From NCBI GenBank assembly GCA_964106915.2, contig OZ066922.1: a stretch of 64,000 nt of DNA; one strand, written 5' to 3'. The DNA comes from Podarcis gaigeae. Taxonomy: Eukaryota. The notes under the pieces are model-generated. The model was given only the letters and a program-made list of their open reading frames with translations, did not search any database and was not told the DNA's origin. Of the stretch, positions 10,406 to 58,750 are shown in pieces. Each line of letters begins with the position of its first letter. Positions within the stretch are counted from its first letter, which is position 1. The translations under genes and the position numbers were made by a program.

Positions 10406-10707
10406 TATCCATTCTTAAGGAAATCAGCCCTGAGTGCTCACTGGAAGGACAGATCCTGAAGCTGAGACTCCAATACTTTGGCCACCTCATGAGAAGAGAA
10501 GACTCCCTGGAAAAGACCCTGATGTTGGGAAAGATGGAGGGCACAAGGAGAAGGGGACGACACAGGACAAGATGGTTGGATAATGTTATTGAGGTTACCA
10601 GCATGAGTTTGACCAAACTGCGGGAGGCAGTGGAAGACAGGAGTGCCTAGCGTGTTCTGGTCCATGGGGTTATGAAGAGTCGGACACGACTAAACAACTA
10701 AACAACA
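10406..10707 (+). mobile_element. 5'-truncated Bov-B (RTE) LINE
   Basis: Translates to SILKEISPECSLEGQILKLRLQYFGHLMRREDSLEKTLMLGKMEG, the Bov-B ORF C-terminus. It has a (CAA)-type tail and a perfect 14-bp TSD atataattgcacaa (10392-10405, 10708-10721). Confidence 0.95.
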
Positions 10708-21439: not shown

Positions 21440-22209
21440 CCAGTAAATGGCTCTGACTAATAAAAGCTCCATTTATTAAGCTGCAGATATTTCAGTGATC
21501 AGTACGTTGCACTGATTAATCAATTATTGTGCAGTCCTCTGTCTAAAACTCCACTTCAGTTTGTATAAAGTTAATAAAATTGTAGTCTGTAATAAAAAAA
21601 AAGTGACAATCTGTGCTTCAGTGAAATACATTTGGTAAGATATTATTTTTTAAAAGAAGTTTTGTTATAAAACATGCATGATGAATTAGTCATAAAAAGT
21701 CAAAACATGTAAAATTAATGTTAAAAGATGTAATGTATTTTTCCTATTCCTTTCACCAACTATAAATCATTTCAAATGGCTTTTAGGTATGAATGATAGC
21801 TTTGTGCAGAACTGAGATGGGCCTGTCCTACAAATTGATACTAATGGCATAAGAATTATTAAGCAAATTAACATGAAACTTTATGACTGTGGCTTTATCT
21901 TCCTTCTGCAAAAAGTGGATCAATGATGAAATGCGTTTCTAAAACCATGGAGATAGCTTAGGTTTGTTTTTTGGTTTGTTTTTATAAAATCTCCATGATA
22001 ATTTCTAAAACTCTTTAGAAGCTCAATCCACATCTCATTTGTGCTAATGTACTTGCTTTATGCCATCAATTCAAGTTCTTTGGGTTATTGTGGATGGCTT
22101 TAACTATCACACCTGCATTATAATTATGAAATGGCTTACTCTTAAGAAATCAATAATAACATTAGGGGTGAAATATCTTTAGGTATACAAAAAGCAGCAA
22201 CATACATTT

Positions 22210-23074
22210 TTGTTGTTGTTTAGTCGTGTCCAACTCTTCATGACCCCATGGACCAGAGAACGCCAGGCACTCCTGTCTTCCACTGCCTCCAGCAGTTTTG
22301 TCAAACCCATGCTGGTAGCTTTGAGAACACTGTCCAACCACCTCATCCTCTGTCGTCCCCTTCTCCTTGTGCCCCCCATCTTTCCCAACATCAGGGTCTT
22401 TTCCAGGGAATCTTCTCTTCTCATGAGGTGGCCAAAGTATTGGAGTCTCAGCTTCAAGATCTGTCCTTCCAGTGAGCACTCAGGGCTGATTTCCTTAAGA
22501 ATGGAGAGGTTTGATCTTCTTGCAGTCCATGGGACTCTCAAGAGTCTCCTCCAGCACCATAATTCAAAAGCATCAATTCTTCGGTGATCAGCCTTCTTTA
22601 TGGTCCAGCTCTCACTTCCACACATTGGGAAAACCATAGCTTTTACTATATGGACCTTTGTTGGCAAGGTGATGTCTCTGCTTATTAAGATGCTGTCTCG
22701 GTTTGTCATCACTTTTCTCCCAAGAAGCAGGCGTCTTTTAATTTTGTGGCTGCTGTCACCATCTGCAGTGATCATGGAGCCCAAGAAAGTAGATACCTCT
22801 CACTGCCTCCATTTCTTCCCCTTCTATTTGCCAGGAGGTGATGGGACCAGTGGCCATGATCTTCTTTTTTTATGTTGAGCTTCAGACCATATTTTGCACG
22901 CTCCTCTTTTACCCTCATTAAGAGGTTCTTTAATTCTCCCTCACTTTCTGCCATCAAAGTTGTGTCATCTGCATATCTGAGGTTGTTGATATTTCTTCCG
23001 GCAATCTTAATTCCTGCTTGGGATTTATCCAGTCCAGGCTTTTGCATGATGAATTCTGCATATAAGTTAAATAA
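22210..23074 (-). mobile_element. 5'-truncated Bov-B (RTE) LINE, ~865 bp, with frameshifted RT domain
   Basis: ORFs 22772-23047 (INNLRYADDTTLMAESEGELKNLL) and 22179-22784 (RRIDAFELWCWRRLLRVPWTARRSNLSILKEI) are Bov-B RT and C-terminus. The (CAA)n tail is at 22210-22220. Confidence 0.96.
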
Positions 23075-24557: not shown

Positions 24558-24912
24558 GGGATGCGGGTGGTGCTGTGGGTTAAACCACAGAGCTTAGGAC
24601 TTGCCGATCAGAAGGTCGGCGGTTTGAATCCCCGCGATGGAGTGAGCTCCCGTTGCTCGGTCCTTGCTCCTACCAACCTAGCAGTTCGAAAGCAAGTCAA
24701 AGTGCAAGTAGATAAATAGGTACCGCTCCAGTGGGAAGGTAAATGGCATTTCCGTGCACTGCTCTGGTTTGCCAGAAGTGGCTTAGTCATGCTGGCCACA
24801 TGACCCGGAAGCTGTATGCCGGCTCCCTCGGCCAGTAAAGCGAGATGAGCGCCGCAACCTCAGAGTCGGTCACGACTGGACCTAATGGTCAGAGATCCCT
24901 TTACCTTTACCT
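24558..24912 (+). mobile_element. Full-length Sauria SINE (Squam1, lacertid type)
   Basis: tRNA-like head gggatgcgggtggtgctgtgggttaaaccac, B-box ggtttgaatccc, core ccaacctagcagttcgaaagca...gtgcaagtagataaatagg and an (ACCTTT)n tail. Confidence 0.93.
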
Positions 24913-25865
24913 AAACAATAAGTTCATTGAGGGGAAGCTTGGAGGAGAACAACAACCAAGCATGAATTGTGCTTAGGAGAGAAAATAATATTTCTGGCCC
25001 TCCCAACCACTGGCCAGTATGGTCTAACACTGAGGGCAGATGGGCTAAACCTTACAATGGGAAATAGCCCTGAACCCTCTCACAATATATTGGAGGATAT
25101 TCCCAGTCCTGCAAGATCCCATGAGGGCAGCATAAGGAATGAAGCCTCATCTTGCCTTCTCTGCACTCACTTGAACCTCTGCACCACTGGGCATAATTGC
25201 CCTGCATGGAAGTATATATGGAGCAAAGCTACCATTGGCCCTTGCATTCCTAGGATTGGGTGACTATTTACTGGCTGAATTTTCATATCTTATAGAAAGT
25301 ATTAACAGAGCCTGTGCAAATGACTCATGAGTAATATCTAAAGTAATGCCTTCTTTCCTCACCTAGTGCACTGTATTAGTGATGGCCAGCACTCATCAAA
25401 ACTGATAGGGCAGTAGATGGGCCAGAGCCAATATCAAGCAGATCCATGTAAATGTGATTTTGTCCCCATTCTCCAGCCTTCTGAGTTCTGCAAGGGCAAA
25501 AGTAAGACTAAGGACAAGGAAGGTATTGCAGAGTGCTACCCCTGGACTGACTGTAAGTAAGGACGTGCCGAGGGAGGTTGGATAAATTTAAACTTAGGTC
25601 TGTGGGGTACTCCTTCATTTGGTCAAATGGACCAGACTTCCCTGTACTGCATAGATATTTAATAAGAGTGCAGGTGGGAAGGGGAGGAGAGGGGGGTTGG
25701 AGGGAGGGAGAGGGAGAGAGATTGAAGCTTCTTAATAATCTGTCCATATAAGGTTTTTAGAGAGCCTGGTGCGAACTGTATCACCATCTGACTCCACAAG
25801 CCACATGGTACTCAAGCATCACATTGTACCTCTTCTCGGATATTGTTCTTGCAATTCTGATTGCC

Positions 25866-28977: not shown

Positions 28978-29230
28978 CGCCTGCCAACCTAGCAGTTCGA
29001 AAGCACCTCCGGGTGCAAGTAGATAAATAGGGACCGCTTACCAGCGGGAAGGTAAACGGCGTTTCCGTGTGCGGCTCTGGCTCGCCAGAGCAGCGATGTC
29101 ACGCTGGCCACGTGACCCGGAAGTGTCTCCGGACAGCGCTGGCCCCTGGCCTCTTGAGTGAGATGGGCGCACAACCCCAGAGTCTGGCAAGACTGGCCCG
29201 TACGGGCAGGGGTACCTTTACCTTTACCTT
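28978..29230 (+). mobile_element. 5'-truncated, young Sauria SINE (distinct subfamily)
   Basis: Core ccaacctagcagttcgaaagca and (ACCTTT)n tail, with many intact CpGs and a perfect 12-bp TSD tatcctgactgt (28966-28977, 29231-29242). Confidence 0.93.
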
Positions 29231-29341
29231 TATCCTGACTGTGCAACGATTTCATGTGTGCAATGCCTATTCACTAAAAAAGAAAAAAGCGGAGAAGTTG
29301 AGCTGCAGTTGTATGTGAAATATTTATGTCACTTTTACTAC

Positions 29342-31316: not shown

Positions 31317-31751
31317 TGTAAAGGTTATAGGGGTTGCTCGTGCGTAAGTTGCCGACACTCCTGGCTAGGTTGCCTGGTTAAACCTTTTCTGTCTGGACAG
31401 CCCTTCACTTCGTGGCTGTTTCAGTCACTAGCAGAATCCATCAGTGGGCATTTCTTGAACCTCTTCCAGCAAATAAGTTCTTTGACGCCAAGTCTCCGCC
31501 TACTCTCCCTGCGCGGAAGTCTTCTGCGCAGGGTGGGTGTGGGCAGCGGAGGACCCGTGCTCTCCCTGCTCGTCTCTGGCGAGGAGTCCTGGAGCCCCCT
31601 CACCGATTCCCCCATCTGCCCCCCTTTATCCCTGGTGTTACGCTGATTTCCTTCCCCAGCCAATGAGCTGCCTCTCTCCCTGCTGGGCCCTTCTCCAGCA
31701 TCGCTTGGGAGCCTTGCCTCCGCCTCTGGCTCCGATGGCAGTTCCCTGACA
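31317..31751 (-). mobile_element. Solo LTR (Gypsy-like), 435 bp, young, carrying a 109-aa open frame
   Basis: TG...CA termini, perfect 5-bp TSD gcatc (31312-31316, 31752-31756), CpG-rich. The minus-strand frame is open from 31750 to the stop at 31421. Confidence 0.88.
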
Positions 31752-32822: not shown

Positions 32823-34513
32823 ACCATACTTTGTAATGGCCATGACTCAAGCAGCAGCATGAGGAGAGGAGCAGCGTCAGCACTGGGGGAGAAAAACTTC
32901 CCTCCTTGCTGTTATTGCTGAAGATACACAGGAACCACAAGAGACGCAAGCAGGGTGAGTTACGGAAGTCGGTGAATGAAAGGCAGACTTGTGGCTGGGC
33001 AAGTGGCAAGGTTTTCTAAGACTACCAACAGCAGAAAGGGGAGAAACAAATCCCAACATTCCTCTAATCAGAGGTCTGCAGGGGTCCAATTTAAGTCAGA
33101 TTGGCTTGGAATATACAGCTATTTTCAAATTAGGAGTGGGGGATGATGCTTATTCTGAGCTAATCCAAGGCAACCTGGGGACATAGTGAAGTTCATTTGT
33201 CCCTATTACCAACTCATTAGCAGATATGCTGCTACAATATTTTGCAATGGTTGAAGATGTTGAAAAGTCATGAAGGGCAGTTTCTCCATACTTTGCATTA
33301 CAGCGATATAGCCTCAAGATTACATAGACGTGAATGGCAAACAATTTTCTCTTAGCCTCTGTCTGATAGGAAGGTGTAGCCTTTTCATGACATGAAGACA
33401 ATGAGAAGTGCTTCTGGATACTGCTGCAGTTTTGAATTTTAGGGACAAGAAGTGCCAAGGGATGCAATTCAAAGCACCCTGGAAGTTTCCCAGAAAGTAA
33501 GAAATAGCTATTATACCTACACTTTGCTTTCCATTAAGACGTGGTGCTTGGAGTAGTTTGGGTGTTCATCTAAAATTTCAGTACTGCACAACTAGGGGCA
33601 GATGTTGTGCCATAATGAATTTATACTATATTCAAATCTATTTATACATGGATTTGGGTGGTTAAGACCCAATCAAGCTTTGATCTCATAAGACCACCAT
33701 TTCCCTCAAACATCTCCAGGTTTGTTTTTTAAAGCCCAACTAATTTTATGCAAAATTTTATGCAAAAAATACAAGTAGTATGTGTATAGAATGAATGAAA
33801 GAGACAGTCTCTGTGGTGTATTATATTTCTGTGGCTTTATTTTATATATTTATAATTATAATTATATTACCATTTATACACATTTTTGCCTATCTGTTAA
33901 TGTGCTGGTTTTGTTAGGAAACCTAGTGTGTAGAAATATGACAAGTATAATAGTGCATGTACTATGTGAGAATTGTTCATATTTGTAGCAGAATTGAGGA
34001 ACTAAGGCTTACTTCTTGTCAACATTAAGAAGTGAGATGGGAATTAGAAGAAGAAGAAGAAACCTATGTGGATAAGCTTGATCTTTCTCTAAACGATTCC
34101 ACCAAGGCCTCCCACATTTTTTATGTTCCATAAAGCAGTAAATGGTCATGAACAATGTCTGTGAATGTTAGTTACACATTACGTCTCTGTGTGTAACTGT
34201 AAAGAAAATAATCTCATCTACATTTCTAAGAGATGCTAATTACATACTGCATATTAAATCAAGTCCACTTGGGGAAAGGTTTCCTTAATTAATTAAATTA
34301 ATTAGCAATAAGGCAGAAGAGGGAGTCATGGTTATCAGGAGATAATCACACCCCCAGGACATGGCTTTGCACTCAGAATGTTTCAACTTTTAGGATGAAA
34401 GTACGACAACTTTTACTTAATTTTAACAAGTGACTCCTGGATATTCCCACACTTTAGATAGGGCAGATGTGTTTGCTCCACATACATTTGTAACAAACCA
34501 AATGACACAGCAG

Positions 34514-45893: not shown

Positions 45894-48176
45894 TGTTTTA
45901 TCACCTTGGTGGTTATGAGTATGAAAAAGAGAAGTCTAGCACCACAGAGGAAGGAAAAATAACTATAAACTCACTAACTGCTCATCCAGAAGTTGGCTCC
46001 ATTTGTAATTAGTCCATCCCAAAATGTAGCCGCTCTGAATAACAGTTAAGACAGACCTCAAACATGGTTGTTGTTTTCCTTGTTCAAGGGAAAGATGAAA
46101 AACACATCTCCCCCCAGCAGGGTGAAGCAAATCTGATAAGCAGAAAAGGCAGATATAAAAATTGCATGACTTTTGTCAGCAAACTCTGATGTACATGATT
46201 ATAAAAGTAATTTACTTGCATTGTTATTGCTTAATGGTAATGATTGTATCTGTAGACCATAATTAATGTATGATGAGAAGATTCCTGCAGTTAAAATACA
46301 TTATAAGTTCTCTGAGGAAAGTATATCCAGAACTTAGTAGCTCTCTGCCCTGATATGGGTTTTAATATAATTTCCAAGGGATTTTAAATACCCAGCATTG
46401 GAAATTTTGCAAGCAGGAAGTGAACATTTCAGCAGCTCTAGATGTATGAAGTTGATTTGTAAGCACCCTTGGGTGATAGTGGAAGAAGAGTGACATTGCT
46501 GCTGTTGTAAAAAAACACACACACACAACCCCCCCCCCACACATATTGGTTATTGGAAAGATGCATTTACATATATTCCAAAACAATATGGCTTCATAAA
46601 GGAGCACCATGTTTATGCTGCAATAAATAATAATAACATACATGACTTTTTTGTTCATTTTACATTCTGGTCATCATATAGCTATAGCAATCTAAAGATA
46701 CTGATCTTTTTAACACACAGTCAACACAGGTGTCAGTTACTTTTCTCAGCTCGCTTGGAGCTGCACATGAAATTTGTGTGTATCTGTCAGCTTGTCTATT
46801 CTTCACTTCTGAGACTGTCAGAAATAATCAGCTTGCTCTTTCCCATTTACTCAGGTGCAAATGGAAGTCCTACTTGCCTCCTGACTGCCAAGGGACACAG
46901 CCCACACAGTGCTAGCTGTTTACACTGGAGTAGCATCACTCAAGAAAGGAACATGCAGATGTGTAAACAAACATAACATTCACAACAGAATTAGATAAAT
47001 GTTATGGAAACGGCTTTTGCCAATTTTCTCTGATATTTACTATAAATATTATGGGGGCGGGGAGAAATCCCATTTCCTGGAGAGAAGGTTGATATTGTGA
47101 TTCACTGATATATAAGAATGCTAGAGCAACTGCATTTAAGTAATGGCTGCTCTCTGGTGTTCTACACAAGAAAAGCAATGTTGCTTGGGGCCGCTTGTTC
47201 CCAGACAGATGACTGCTACCACACAGCTGGGAGGAAAGTATCCAATTTCCACTATAAGGAAAGCACTTCTTATTTATGGAAAGCAGGGTTAATGTCGAGT
47301 AAGTTCACTTCCAGAATGTCACTATCTTCAGGTAGAATGCAATAATGCACCAGTGAATTCAGGTTTTATAATTACAGTTGATTTGGTGCTGTTGTGTGTG
47401 CAACAAACCCATTCTCCCTCACCCCCAGCCAAACATTGTTTTTGATCAAAGTGGCAGGAAAATACACTGGAAAGTGTGGGATAAGATTTGAGGCAACACT
47501 GTAAAATTACCCTGCAAACAAATCAGAATGAATGCTTGGTAAGTGGCCAACATCATCTAACCTCCCACTAAGGTTTTTCAGAGCAGCCATCCATCCCTCA
47601 TTACCCAAATGTCCAGAATGAAGGCACATGACACAGAAGTATGGTGAAAATGTTTCAACTTTTTGAACTATTCTGTAACTCAGGCATGCAGCAAAGCAAA
47701 TTAAACTGCTGCTCTGGGCTTCCTAATTTGAAAATATAGTGAGGGGTTAATTCCCCCTTGTCTCATTCTCATGGGCAACATCATTCTAGCTAGAATGTCA
47801 TGACTTCAGGCCTACTTGGCAGCTACTTTTCCACATGTGGTGGACCACCTAGGGTAGCTGGGCGAGCAGTTTTCTATTTGAAGGGCCTTCTGGTCCAAGT
47901 CTAGTTGAAAGGAACCATTAAAAGGGAGAGCTTGAAATTACCCTGGAATTGCCCATAAAACATTAGTACCTGAACAACACACTGAGCACACACAGATCCC
48001 ATGATCAAACCTCACCAATCTGGTGAGGTGTACCATATTTCTATTTAAATGATAGTGTCCTGAACTCCTGGCTTACCTGGCAGCAAGACAGTATGCCATA
48101 TCCAAAGTTCAAAATCTGAGGATTGATCCACACAAGCAAAGTCCAAAGATCAGGAAACAAGGTTCAGGGTCAATAC

Positions 48177-48538
48177 CATACCCTCCAACATTTCTCCAAT
48201 GAAAATAGGGACGTTCCATTCCATAATGATAATTTTATACCCAACACAACTTATTGGGTTGCCCAAGCCACTCTGGGCAGCTTCCAACGTATACAACAAC
48301 ACAACAAAATATTAAAAAACTTCCCTATACAGGAGTGCCTTCACATGGCTCAGGGGTCAGATAACTCCATACCCTCCAACATTTATCCAATGAAAATAGG
48401 AATATCCTACCACACCTTCCATTTCTCTAATGAAAATATGGACATCCTAAGGAAAAGTGGGACATTCTAGAATCAAATCAGAAACCAGGACGGCTTCTCT
48501 AAATCAGGGACGTCCACGGAAAATACAGTAGGGGTCTG
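48177..48538 (+). mobile_element. Non-autonomous DNA element with 6-bp TSD and an embedded L2 tail
   Basis: Starts CATACCCTCCAA and ends GGGGTCTG, with TSD caatac (48171-48176, 48539-48544). The left-end motif is repeated three times, and 48233-48346 is a reversed L2 3' end. Confidence 0.8.
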
Positions 48539-48916
48539 CAATACAAGTAACCAAGTCCAGTCTCACAGTCAGGATACGGTCCAGAGTCAAACCCAAAGCA
48601 CAGTCCTGTGGAGATCCATGAGCATCCAAGTCAAGGTTCATCAACATGAGCAGTTAAGCAGACACAACCCCTCCGCTTTGCTGCCCTTTAATCCCTTGCA
48701 TGATGATTGCAGCATCTGGGCTTGATGAGACATGTGCCCCGTACTTGTTCCAAGCCCACTCTGGCTGAGGAATCACACAGCTCGTCCCAGAGCTAATAAG
48801 CCTCACCTGGCCAGCTAGTGAGCTGGGCTGTGGGCCCTTGCATGCTGTAGCCTCCTAGAGTGCTCCTCCCACTGCTCCCAACACCTCAGAGCCTGCTCTG
48901 TTCATGGAGACAGGGG

Positions 48917-49568
48917 TGTTAGGATATAGTTCCATTCCATCTTTAGAACAGATGTGTGGATTGTTGTATGTCACATGTCTGTTTATTTCCAGCACAGTCT
49001 GCTGGGAACTTCTGTTGTATATTGCTTTTGCTATGCTGCTATTTTGCTTGGACATGAAGGGAAGCAGACATGTTTTTTCCTTTGTTCCTGATGCTGAATT
49101 TACAGCGAGCCTGTAAATATGCTTCTGTCTGCCACTTCTGTTGTGAAAAGTTATTCACTCTGCAGATTAGAGCGTGCTCAGTCTCTGAAGGCTTCTGAGG
49201 CTTGAGTCGCTGATTGATGCTGTTCCAAGAACCGGACTTCGCCCGGCTGCCGGCCGGTGGCTGGTGCCAGCTGTTATGTACTGAAGTTCTCACCCTGGGC
49301 CAGCAGGGGGATACTGTAGATACTTATGCAAATGAAGGATCAAAAGTGACGTTCAGTGATTGGATAGTTTTAGAAAGTTGCTACAGTTACGTTGTTCTGG
49401 AGCTCTATATAAGCAGGCTGACTGAGCTCTTCAGTTCAGTTCCATTCTGGCCTCTGAATAAACAAGAGCTGTTTGAAGAATCGCTGTGTCGTCTGATATG
49501 TTCGCCCACAACTTAACACCAGCTGGGGGCCTGCCAAATGCCCCCATCAACCCAGATGCATCCCAACA
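48917..49568 (-). mobile_element. Middle solo LTR B (400 bp after removing insert)
   Basis: Termini TGTTAGGA...TCCCAACA (7/8 inverted), perfect 5-bp TSD agggg (48912-48916, 49569-49573), and AATAAA on the minus strand at ~48985. Confidence 0.82.
49272..49518 (+). mobile_element. Inner solo LTR C (247 bp, Copia-like size and structure)
   Basis: TGTTA...TAACA termini, perfect 5-bp TSD ccagc (49267-49271, 49519-49523), TATATAA at 49406-49412 and AATAAA at 49457-49462. Confidence 0.9.
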
Positions 49569-51096
49569 AGGGGCTGCTCCAGTGATGGGTCCTGCTGCTC
49601 TGGTTCATGTGCACTGACCCCCATCCCCTTGTCATCCTCCATCACCCTATGAACACTTCCTACACAAACCTCTCCTTCCTTACCCCCAGCTTGCCCCAGT
49701 GTGTCCCAGTCCTAGCTACACCCCTCACCGGGATGCTCTTCCTCCTTCTTGTGGCCCTGCCAGTTTATGACAGATAGCACTTGTAACATAATTAGCATAG
49801 GCAGATGTTATGCAAATCTGTCCTCTGTTAACCTCTTTTTTGACAATGCACAAATCATCACCCCATCAAGGAACTGTAGCCCAAACCAACCGATTGGCAG
49901 GTAGACTGCTCTCTGCTGCATCTTGACAAGAAGGATTTATGATATCAAAATTTTTGACTCTATGTAAGGAGGAGAAGGTATCTTTACCTTTACAATCTAT
50001 AAGTATTGTCCCTGCTCAGTGTCAAGCCTGGAGATCAAGGCACAATATGTGTGCATGGAACCTAATTTGGGAGTATAATAAGAGAGACTGTAGTCGTTGA
50101 TGCTTACATGGTGTAGAAGTTAAAGTATGCTGCTTAAGTTATATATTTCATGCCTTTTAGGAGAAGTTAATGTTTTAAGTGCCTTAACTCCCATCTTAAA
50201 CCAAAGGGGTTTTTTTCTTTACAGAATGATAATACCATCTAGAAATAATTCCCTATTATAAGTAAAACTGAGTGGTACTGCTAACTGTTGCATATGCACA
50301 AAATCTTGGCTGCTCTCTAAAATGACATTCTAATAACGTGTTCACATGTGTGCCCTATATTGGGTGTTATTTCTTATTATTACTCCAGCAATGAAAATGT
50401 TGTGATTTGTATGTGTGGATGCTTCTTCCACATGCCAGTGATCTATGAAACGTGGAGCCAGCAAGATAAGTTAACACTTTTACACAACACTGCACCTTGT
50501 TCCTGGCTATGATGCTGGAAGTATGTTAAATGCAAACTGAGTTTACCAATCAGACCTTTACTGTAAATACTTATTTTGCATGACAGGATAAAACTACCTA
50601 TCATCATCTACTGAATTGGGATGTTTGACTATCACATAGCATTTACCTGTGATCACTGCTGTTGCTCATCATCACATCCTTCATTTCTCATTAGTGTTTG
50701 GGCTGCTGTCCTATTTTAGATGTAGCAATCTGTGTTCAGTCTTTTCCCCTAGTACCAAAAGGACTATGAAATACTCAGCTTTCCTGTGTTTACCCAAAGT
50801 GGCACACACACTGGTTTTCTATGCATTTTGCCAGTGCTGAAATCTCTGTCCTACTCTGAGCAGTACAGCAGAAAAAGCAGAAGCACGTATCATTCATGCT
50901 CCCAATTTCCTTGCTTGTTATGCACATCCAAACTGGTTCCAAAACTCAGCTGAACCGGGAGTGAAGCAGGATCTGAGCTTCTAAGAATCTCCAGCCCCAT
51001 CTACACTTTGCCCAGGCCCCCTTTATGCTCACAGTTGTCTTCTTTGTCTTTAAATGTAGTTTTAAGTGAACTTAATGCAAGCAAAGGCATATAGAA

Positions 51097-55072: not shown

Positions 55073-56228
55073 ATCTAGCCATTCAAATGAGAAAGCAGGC
55101 CTGACTGATAGGGAAAAACTTATACAGGAAGTGCAAGCCTTATACCAAGCAATATGTTTGGTATACATCTTCCTTTTGACTAATTTTCTCCTATTATCAT
55201 TTCTAACATTTCCCTATTTCCTGTGTATAGACTGTTACATGGATTGGGCACCCTCAACCAAGCACTTCAACAGCCCTCACCCACAAGCCATAATCAAAAT
55301 GAATGAGGCCAGGCTTTAATTGTGCATGATAGACACTGCCCATTGTCTATGTAGAATGATACAGTTAACCAAAATATATGTAAGGAATGCATATACGTTT
55401 TATCAGTTTTCATGAGTGCAATTTTTAGTAGAGCTATAGGTCAAAATTCACCAAAGCAGTGCCCTGGGAGTTTTTAAGCCATGGTAAGAACATGGTCAAA
55501 CCATTCCAAGTCCTCATTTGAAAGTGGTCAACCCTGACTCATCTGTTGAGATTTTTTATGGAGTATTACAGCCATGACATATCAGTGAAAATGTATAGAT
55601 TTAATGTTCTTACATTTCCATAACACATTTGACAAAGTGCCACATCAGAGATTAACGGTCAACATAAAACAATCACACTCTTGGGGAGGCAAAATGGCAC
55701 ACAAGTTAAACAAGTGATTTAGAGGCAAAAGAAAAAGGAAAGCAATAGGCTGGTAGTATCCATAACTGGAACAGTGATCTGATGGAAGTGCATCCAAGGT
55801 CAGATTTAGAGCCTCTCGATTACTGTGCATGAGATTTTCTGGTTGCCATCAGAACCAAATTCTTCAGCTACATGATAATGATTTGGGGACATATTTAGTT
55901 AAAGTGGCATCTGCTCCAACAAATGGAAGTTTATTTCAGCACAAATAATGATGTGAAATTGAAAGCTAACATTAGATCAAATAGATAGTGTGAAATACAC
56001 AATGCAATGCAATATATTATAGTACTGGATAAATATTAAGAAATATATGAAACAATATACAGTACTGGATGCCTCTTCAAATCAGCTGAAGAATTTGAAT
56101 TGTTCTACCAAAGGCTTTAAGTACAAAAGGCAAGTTACAGGTTACAGGAATGTGCAGGTACACAAGTGGTTAAATGCATGACTAAGTGTGAACTAAGATG
56201 TTGATCTAACAAATGGCATACCTGGATA

Positions 56229-56583
56229 GTAAAGGTAAAGGTAAAGAGACCCCTGACCATTAGGTCCAGTCGTGGCCGACTCTGGGGTTGCGGCGCTCAT
56301 CTCGCTTTATTGGCCGAGGAAGCCGGTGTACAGCTTCCAAGTCATGTGGCCAGCATGACTAAGCTGCTTCTGGCAAACCAGAGCAGCGCACGGAAACGCC
56401 ATTTACCTTCCTGCAATGCGGTACCTATTTATCTACTTGCACTTCATGCTTTCGAACTGCTAGGTTGGCAGGAGCAGGGACCGGGCAACGGGAGCTCACC
56501 CCGTTGCGGGGATTCAAACCGCCGACCTTCTGATTGGCAAGTCCTAGGCTCTGTGGTTTAACCCACAGCATCACCCGTGTCGC
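56229..56583 (-). mobile_element. Full-length Sauria SINE
   Basis: Reverse complement of the 24558 copy, with a (GTAAAG)n tail and TSD catacctggata/catgcccggata (10/12). Confidence 0.93.
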
Positions 56584-58377: not shown

Positions 58378-58750
58378 GGGTAAAAGGGGTAAAGGTATTG
58401 TGGACAGTTAAGCCCAGTCAAATGTGACTATGGGGTTGCGGTGCTCATCTTGCTTTAGGCCAAGGAAGCCAGTGTTTGTCCACAGACAGCTTTCAGGTCA
58501 TGTGGCCAGCATGACTAAACCACTTCTTGTGCAACGGAACACCATGATGGAAACCAGAGCACATGGAAATGCCATTTAGCTTCCCACCGCAGCAGTACTT
58601 ATTTAACTACTTGCACTTGTGTGCTTTCGAACTGCTAGGTTGGCAGAAGCTGGGACAGAGCAACAGGAGCTCACCCCATTGTACGGTATCAAACCGCCAA
58701 CCTTCCCAAGAGGCTCAGTGGTTTAGGCCACAGCGTAACACCTGTTCACC
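58378..58750 (-). mobile_element. Older Sauria SINE subfamily copy
   Basis: Core tgctttcgaactgctaggttggcag, decayed ggtaaa tail and CpG-decayed body. Confidence 0.88.

Follow-up and report, generated by a model that had tools for sequence, protein, structure and literature searches.

HIV nef and MMTV sag overlap U3. Like the squamate tail described here, their coding sequence lies in U3 and is copied into both LTRs, but both are separate accessory genes, whereas the squamate tail is the end of pol. In plant CRM elements of group A, pol itself continues into the 3' LTR, and this LTR codes for a CR motif that takes the place of the chromodomain, as set out in PMC3059260 and PMC3605345; the latter also discusses basic residues and potential NLSs of chromovirus integrases. 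A lizard chromovirus family, represented by a solo LTR at 31.3 kb of the stretch analysed here, resembles CRM group A in that pol runs into the 3' LTR; the same is presumed for a second element, LTR A. However, the CR motif replaces the chromodomain in the plant elements, whereas the 31.3-kb family keeps its Chromo domain upstream and the LTR part forms an extra acidic-basic tail. Vertebrate Sushi-like chromoviruses share with the 31.3-kb LTR the TG...CA LTR ends, a TSD of 5 bp and an integrase with SH3_Tf2-1 and chromodomain. LTR end motifs given in PMC3601003 are TGTYANR / CNTNACA for Sushi and TGTNANR for rGmr1. Overlap of pol and LTR as such has been known, and the mechanism is ordinary, with a precedent in plant CRM. 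The long acidic-basic tail of squamates, placed after a chromodomain that has been kept, seems to be a variant without an earlier description. No publication on a long tail encoded by squamate LTRs was found, though the overlap may have been described before by Piskurek 2009 (Anolis chromodomain Gypsy) or Gorinsek 2004.

The window is a stretch of 64,000 nt from Podarcis gaigeae (assembly GCA_964106915.2, contig OZ066922.1) and contains no long ORFs; its best protein hits lie in Podarcis, as fits a squamate, probably lacertid, source. The solo LTR at 31317..31751 (minus strand, 435 bp, TSD GCATC) was delimited, like the elements B and C described below, by a TSD scan, and both of its ends fit the Sushi att motifs (TGTYANR / CNTNACA). 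It contains an open stretch of 109 codons at 31421-31750 (minus strand). Comparison of this peptide with longer proteins gave two hits among 291 candidates. The last 102 residues of P0001 (373-474) match it at 66%, from the second base of the LTR to the stop, and the alignment begins exactly at the TSD-defined start of the LTR. P0001 carries the domains SH3_Tf2-1 (134-195) and Chromo (221-269) and, judged by its domain content, represents the terminal part of a chromovirus (Ty3/Gypsy) Pol, i.e. an integrase-SH3-chromodomain protein; by this alignment, the frame-2 peptide of the 31.3-kb LTR is the C-terminal tail of such a Pol. The residue before the junction in P0001 is Asp and follows a G/E-rich run, so the first T of the LTR is a third codon base and a purine tract, deduced from the protein, would be read through. 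Pol reading through this G-rich junction into the 3' LTR explains 'frame 2' without a separate gene. The same junction and tail occur in Podarcis muralis Gypsy proteins, e.g. P0161 and P0162, and the LTR is linked to the Podarcis muralis 'Gypsy retrotransposon integrase-like protein 1' (UniRef) at 43-66% identity. Pfam returned no family for either the 31.3-kb or the LTR A peptide, and viral contigs searched with P0001 gave nothing. Separately, a P4-ATPase gene model of Podarcis muralis (P0002, UniRef A0A670JKR6) was seen to end in ~48 residues of the basic tail of the 31.3-kb family (79% over 56 columns), which is either exonisation or a prediction error.

The distribution of such tails was followed in wider searches, which covered the best 150 of 36,368 hits and 57 of 940 candidates, plus cluster members. 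A chromodomain was locatable in 143 of 151 proteins, tails of 82 were shorter than 40 residues, and many of the longer ones were gene models spliced to unrelated exons. Numerous public gene models join fragments of chromovirus integrases to host exons of unrelated origin (P0003, P0012, P0044, P0066 and others). Nine tails were selected by a G-rich/Val junction. Their length is 87-209 residues; D+E makes up 0.23-0.28 of the first 60 residues, K+R 0.15-0.35 of the last 40. Such long tails, acidic and then basic, are present in Podarcis, Rhineura and Vipera elements. Several fish chromoviruses stop only 18-22 residues past a G-rich junction (P0127 from Esox and P0052 from Labeo, with the junction placed by inference). 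Environmental elements with both LTRs were obtained for six of 79 loci, and pol stops before or at the start of the repeat in all six; thus, a long tail is not a feature of all chromoviruses. None of the 79 metagenome loci matched the window.

In a tree of 42 hand-chosen rows, all 14 long-tail rows were placed in one clade of 20 rows (support 98/96), whose 18 named rows are all squamates. The long-tail label needs six changes on this tree, which are accounted for by six gene models that are cut, frameshifted or spliced. The tails of most families do not align with each other (z ≤ 4.4 between families vs 25-47 within one). In the clade of the 31.3-kb LTR, the final 42 residues align without gaps and with 27-35 identities; conservative differences make up 34 of 70 in this part vs 39 of 164 upstream (six non-independent pairs). 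RRExRRR is found in 15 of the 18 distinct tails of this clade, the three misses being short gene models. GEGxS was rejected as a family mark, with two of 18 distinct tails even in this clade. Unrelated families share phase, length and acidic-to-basic charge order, but not the motifs proposed in the preliminary description; in families known only as protein, the position of the LTR junction is presumed. The protein-level constraint suggested there is supported for LTR frame 2 across a squamate clade, on grounds not available to that description: this frame is the end of pol, and the tailed elements group in one clade.

LTR A starts with TGTCA at 49772 on the minus strand, adjoining GATAG. Copies of the TSD GATAG are located at 48051-48055 and 49773-49777, the former being the nearest leftward copy followed by TG. 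The other end of LTR A is most likely 48056, with the two GATAG copies paired across the insertions; GATAGTG occurs five times in the window, which bears on this placement. LTR A would then be a solo LTR with TG...CA ends at 48056..49772 (minus strand, ~692 bp net of insertions), carrying three nested insertions. The previously noted interval 48815..49771 holds its coding-like part, but the LTR runs on, likely to 48056. Codons 1-66 are acidic and occupy 49574..49771; the final 32 codons, with abundant TG/CA at codon positions 1-2, occupy 48815..48911 (both minus strand). Internal stops, two as first reported, begin at 49714 and 48904 and the terminal stop at 48817. Beyond the stop follow a probable promoter/R part with one ATTAAA (48539..48814, minus strand) and a probable 3' end piece, whose CA end adjoins GATAG (48056..48170, minus strand).

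Between these two pieces, at 48177..48538, an element of high copy number is inserted, which has a 6-bp TSD (CAATAC), imperfect terminal inverted repeats and a second copy of its own left end near 48368; it is presumably a MITE of the hAT type. The two coding-like parts are separated by the LTR-like element B (48917..49568, TGTTAGG...CCCAACA, TSD AGGGG), which in turn contains the LTR-like element C on the plus strand (49272..49518, 247 bp, TSD CCAGC, TATATAA at 49406, AATAAA at 49457). The TSDs confirm the nesting of B, with one AGGGG copy, in LTR A and of C in B, as had been proposed.

Copies were compared over 48400-49900 in three contig runs and one RNA run. LTR A (over 48553-49776), B and C are multi-copy in all three contig runs. 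Contigs over LTR A are many and largely 80-90% alike, and their depth drops directly beyond 49776. The left part of LTR A is joined to the right part across B in 13 of the 15 joints shown (the listing holds 218 further joints), so other copies of LTR A lack B. Together, the TSDs and the contigs without B establish the nesting independently of any frame argument. In the RNA run, 0-7 reads covered the coding-like parts, which was counted neither for nor against coding; among the RNA data sets listed, none spans the whole stretch. Element C stands out: its contig depth is ~100x that of A and B, and among the three elements it has the highest number of RNA reads, i.e. it is a very abundant 247-bp LTR. 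Further repeats were observed elsewhere in the window. RT-like LINE fragments at 22179-22799 and 10408-10705, which we take to be of the Bov-B type, are 92% alike over 298 nt in inverted orientation. One SINE-like repeat, presumably a Sauria SINE, is present in four copies (24564-24919, 28980-29232, 56226-56577 and 58483-58705). A segment at 32832-33100 (plus strand) with a TGT start and a mildly acidic frame 2 (0.14) is possibly another old LTR.

Translated separately, the two pieces of LTR A reproduce the peptide reported earlier, and they are in phase across the junction by simple arithmetic (198 + 5 + 1 = 204 nt, i.e. 68 codons). This continuity had been taken as support for the nesting, to which it adds little, as it has a 1-in-3 chance and the other frames of the left piece are more open. 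Neither is it correct that the peptide is visible only after excision of the insertions: the acidic signal is contained in the uninterrupted first 199 nt. That the internal stops are one transition away from a sense codon is no evidence of former coding, since this holds for every TAG or TGA. The similarity of motifs to the 31.3-kb peptide proved to be at chance level. The z values of local alignments were -0.3 for the right piece and 1.3-1.6 for the left piece; matches at the level of PGEGCS/AGEGPS (GEGxS) were reached by 55-128 of 1000 shuffles and matches of the left piece by 206-854 of 1000. Also, blastn and tblastx of LTR A against the window gave no likeness to the 31.3-kb LTR.

The remaining signal is compositional. 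Over the first 66 codons of frame 2, D+E is 0.227, vs 0.104 in dinucleotide shuffles. This level was reached by one of 2000 dinucleotide shuffles, even when the best of three frames was taken. When all 605 TGT[ACT]A starts in the window were ranked by acidity of frame 2, LTR A was first and the 31.3-kb LTR second. Frame openness was dropped as evidence for coding: at most one stop was found in 452 of 2000 shuffles of the right piece, which is not significant, and the left piece has two stops in frame 2 vs one and one in the other frames. In the last 32 codons, a stretch picked by the earlier reader and tested after the fact, TG/CA falls on codon positions 1-2 in 11 of 18 cases (p = 0.014). CpG loss in an Arg-rich end would produce such a pile-up. 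A similar tendency is seen past the stop (23 of 53, p = 0.08), but not in the right piece (13 of 35). Codons of Arg or of the CpG-decay type amount to 15 of 32 at the LTR A end, which was matched by 191 of 127,808 windows. CpG o/e is 0.08-0.15 for LTR A vs 0.5 for the 31.3-kb LTR. Across the B site, four of the five junction-spanning contigs with letters shown have 6 additional nt (one event) and the fifth lacks 17, which is out of phase; over the right part, length differences are a multiple of 3 in four of seven listed pieces. This mixed indel phase is as expected for neutrally decaying copies. The LTR A locus itself is an inert, decayed repeat.

LTR A is best read as an aged solo LTR from a chromovirus (Ty3/Gypsy, Sushi-like) family of squamates, a reading to which we assign a probability of roughly 0.75; it would belong to the clade with long tails. 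It shares phase, a length of ~100 codons and acid content with the chromovirus tails, and its peptide starts V-I-N-W, where the Podarcis tail of P0177 starts V-M-A-W (suggestive only). None of four candidates was a homologue of the first 66 codons, and no frame-2 hit to LTR A was obtained at E 0.05 among 247 proteins, in a word-based search that is weak for a decayed query of 66 residues. The LTR A pieces reached z values of at most 1.8 against the nine tails and the 31.3-kb peptide, and a Pol carrying the LTR A tail was not found among the candidates and proteins searched. The missing match is also a point in favour of a different origin, with LTR A belonging to a Gmr1-like Gypsy, a BEL/Pao element or an endogenous retrovirus in which the final gene likewise overlaps U3 and resembles the chromovirus tails by convergence. 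The 5' end fits both TGTYANR of Sushi and TGTNANR of rGmr1, the 692 bp are close to the rGmr1 mean of 695 bp, and the 3' end is one base off CNTNACA and fits neither published motif. TSDs of 5 bp are not specific to chromoviruses. Given the agreement in phase, length and acid content and the similar peptide start, we consider another lineage unlikely.

Still less probable is that LTR A never coded and that a purine-rich U3 merely reads as Glu and Gly in one frame. The right piece is indeed 69% purine, and neither the stop counts nor the motif matches exceed chance. However, the shuffles that keep composition almost never reach the acid content, codon positions are markedly unequal (G 0.50 at position 1, A 0.45 at position 2), and the favoured frame is the coding frame of the 31.3-kb family. 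The case of P0002 demonstrates that LTRs of this kind can enter gene models, and the LTR frame might be a small gene of its own or an exon exapted by the host, in either case selected for at this site. This is very improbable: LTR A is heavily CpG-decayed, contains two internal stops and bears three insertions, its frame begins at the second base of the LTR, with no purine tract upstream, and its relatives are continuous with pol.

For the chromovirus origin of LTR A, the following course of events is proposed. Reverse transcription places U3 in both LTRs, and recombination between LTRs produces solo LTRs. In the full element, the pol frame would pass the integrase chromodomain without stopping, cross a G-rich polypurine tract, enter U3 of the 3' LTR such that the first T of the LTR is a third codon base, and end ~100 codons inside the LTR. 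Reading of pol into U3 is shown by the protein alignment for the 31.3-kb family and presumed for LTR A. The product would be an integrase tail consisting of an acidic, probably disordered stretch, a Pro/Ser part and an Arg-rich end, the latter most likely serving nuclear import or chromatin binding. As U3 ends up in both LTRs and recombination between them leaves one behind, each solo LTR would carry an orphan piece of pol, decaying neutrally.

Tentatively, and with somewhat less than even odds, the squamate clade may have acquired an additional integrase module, encoded by the LTR and following an intact chromodomain, which consists of an acidic spacer and an Arg-rich end that binds nucleosomes or the import machinery. 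Phase, length and charge order would have been kept, while the sequence turned over completely between families. Such a module might correspond in animals to the CR motif of plants, helping to steer insertion, and would seed lizard genomes with ready-made coding ends. The clade-level pattern is of modest weight. It accounts for many squamate solo LTRs reading as protein from base 2 and for gene models such as P0002 picking up LTRs, and it offers the LTR-encoded tail as a way to assign orphan LTRs to a retrotransposon class. It further draws attention to an unstudied tail of the integrase, with a basic end testable for nuclear import or chromatin binding.
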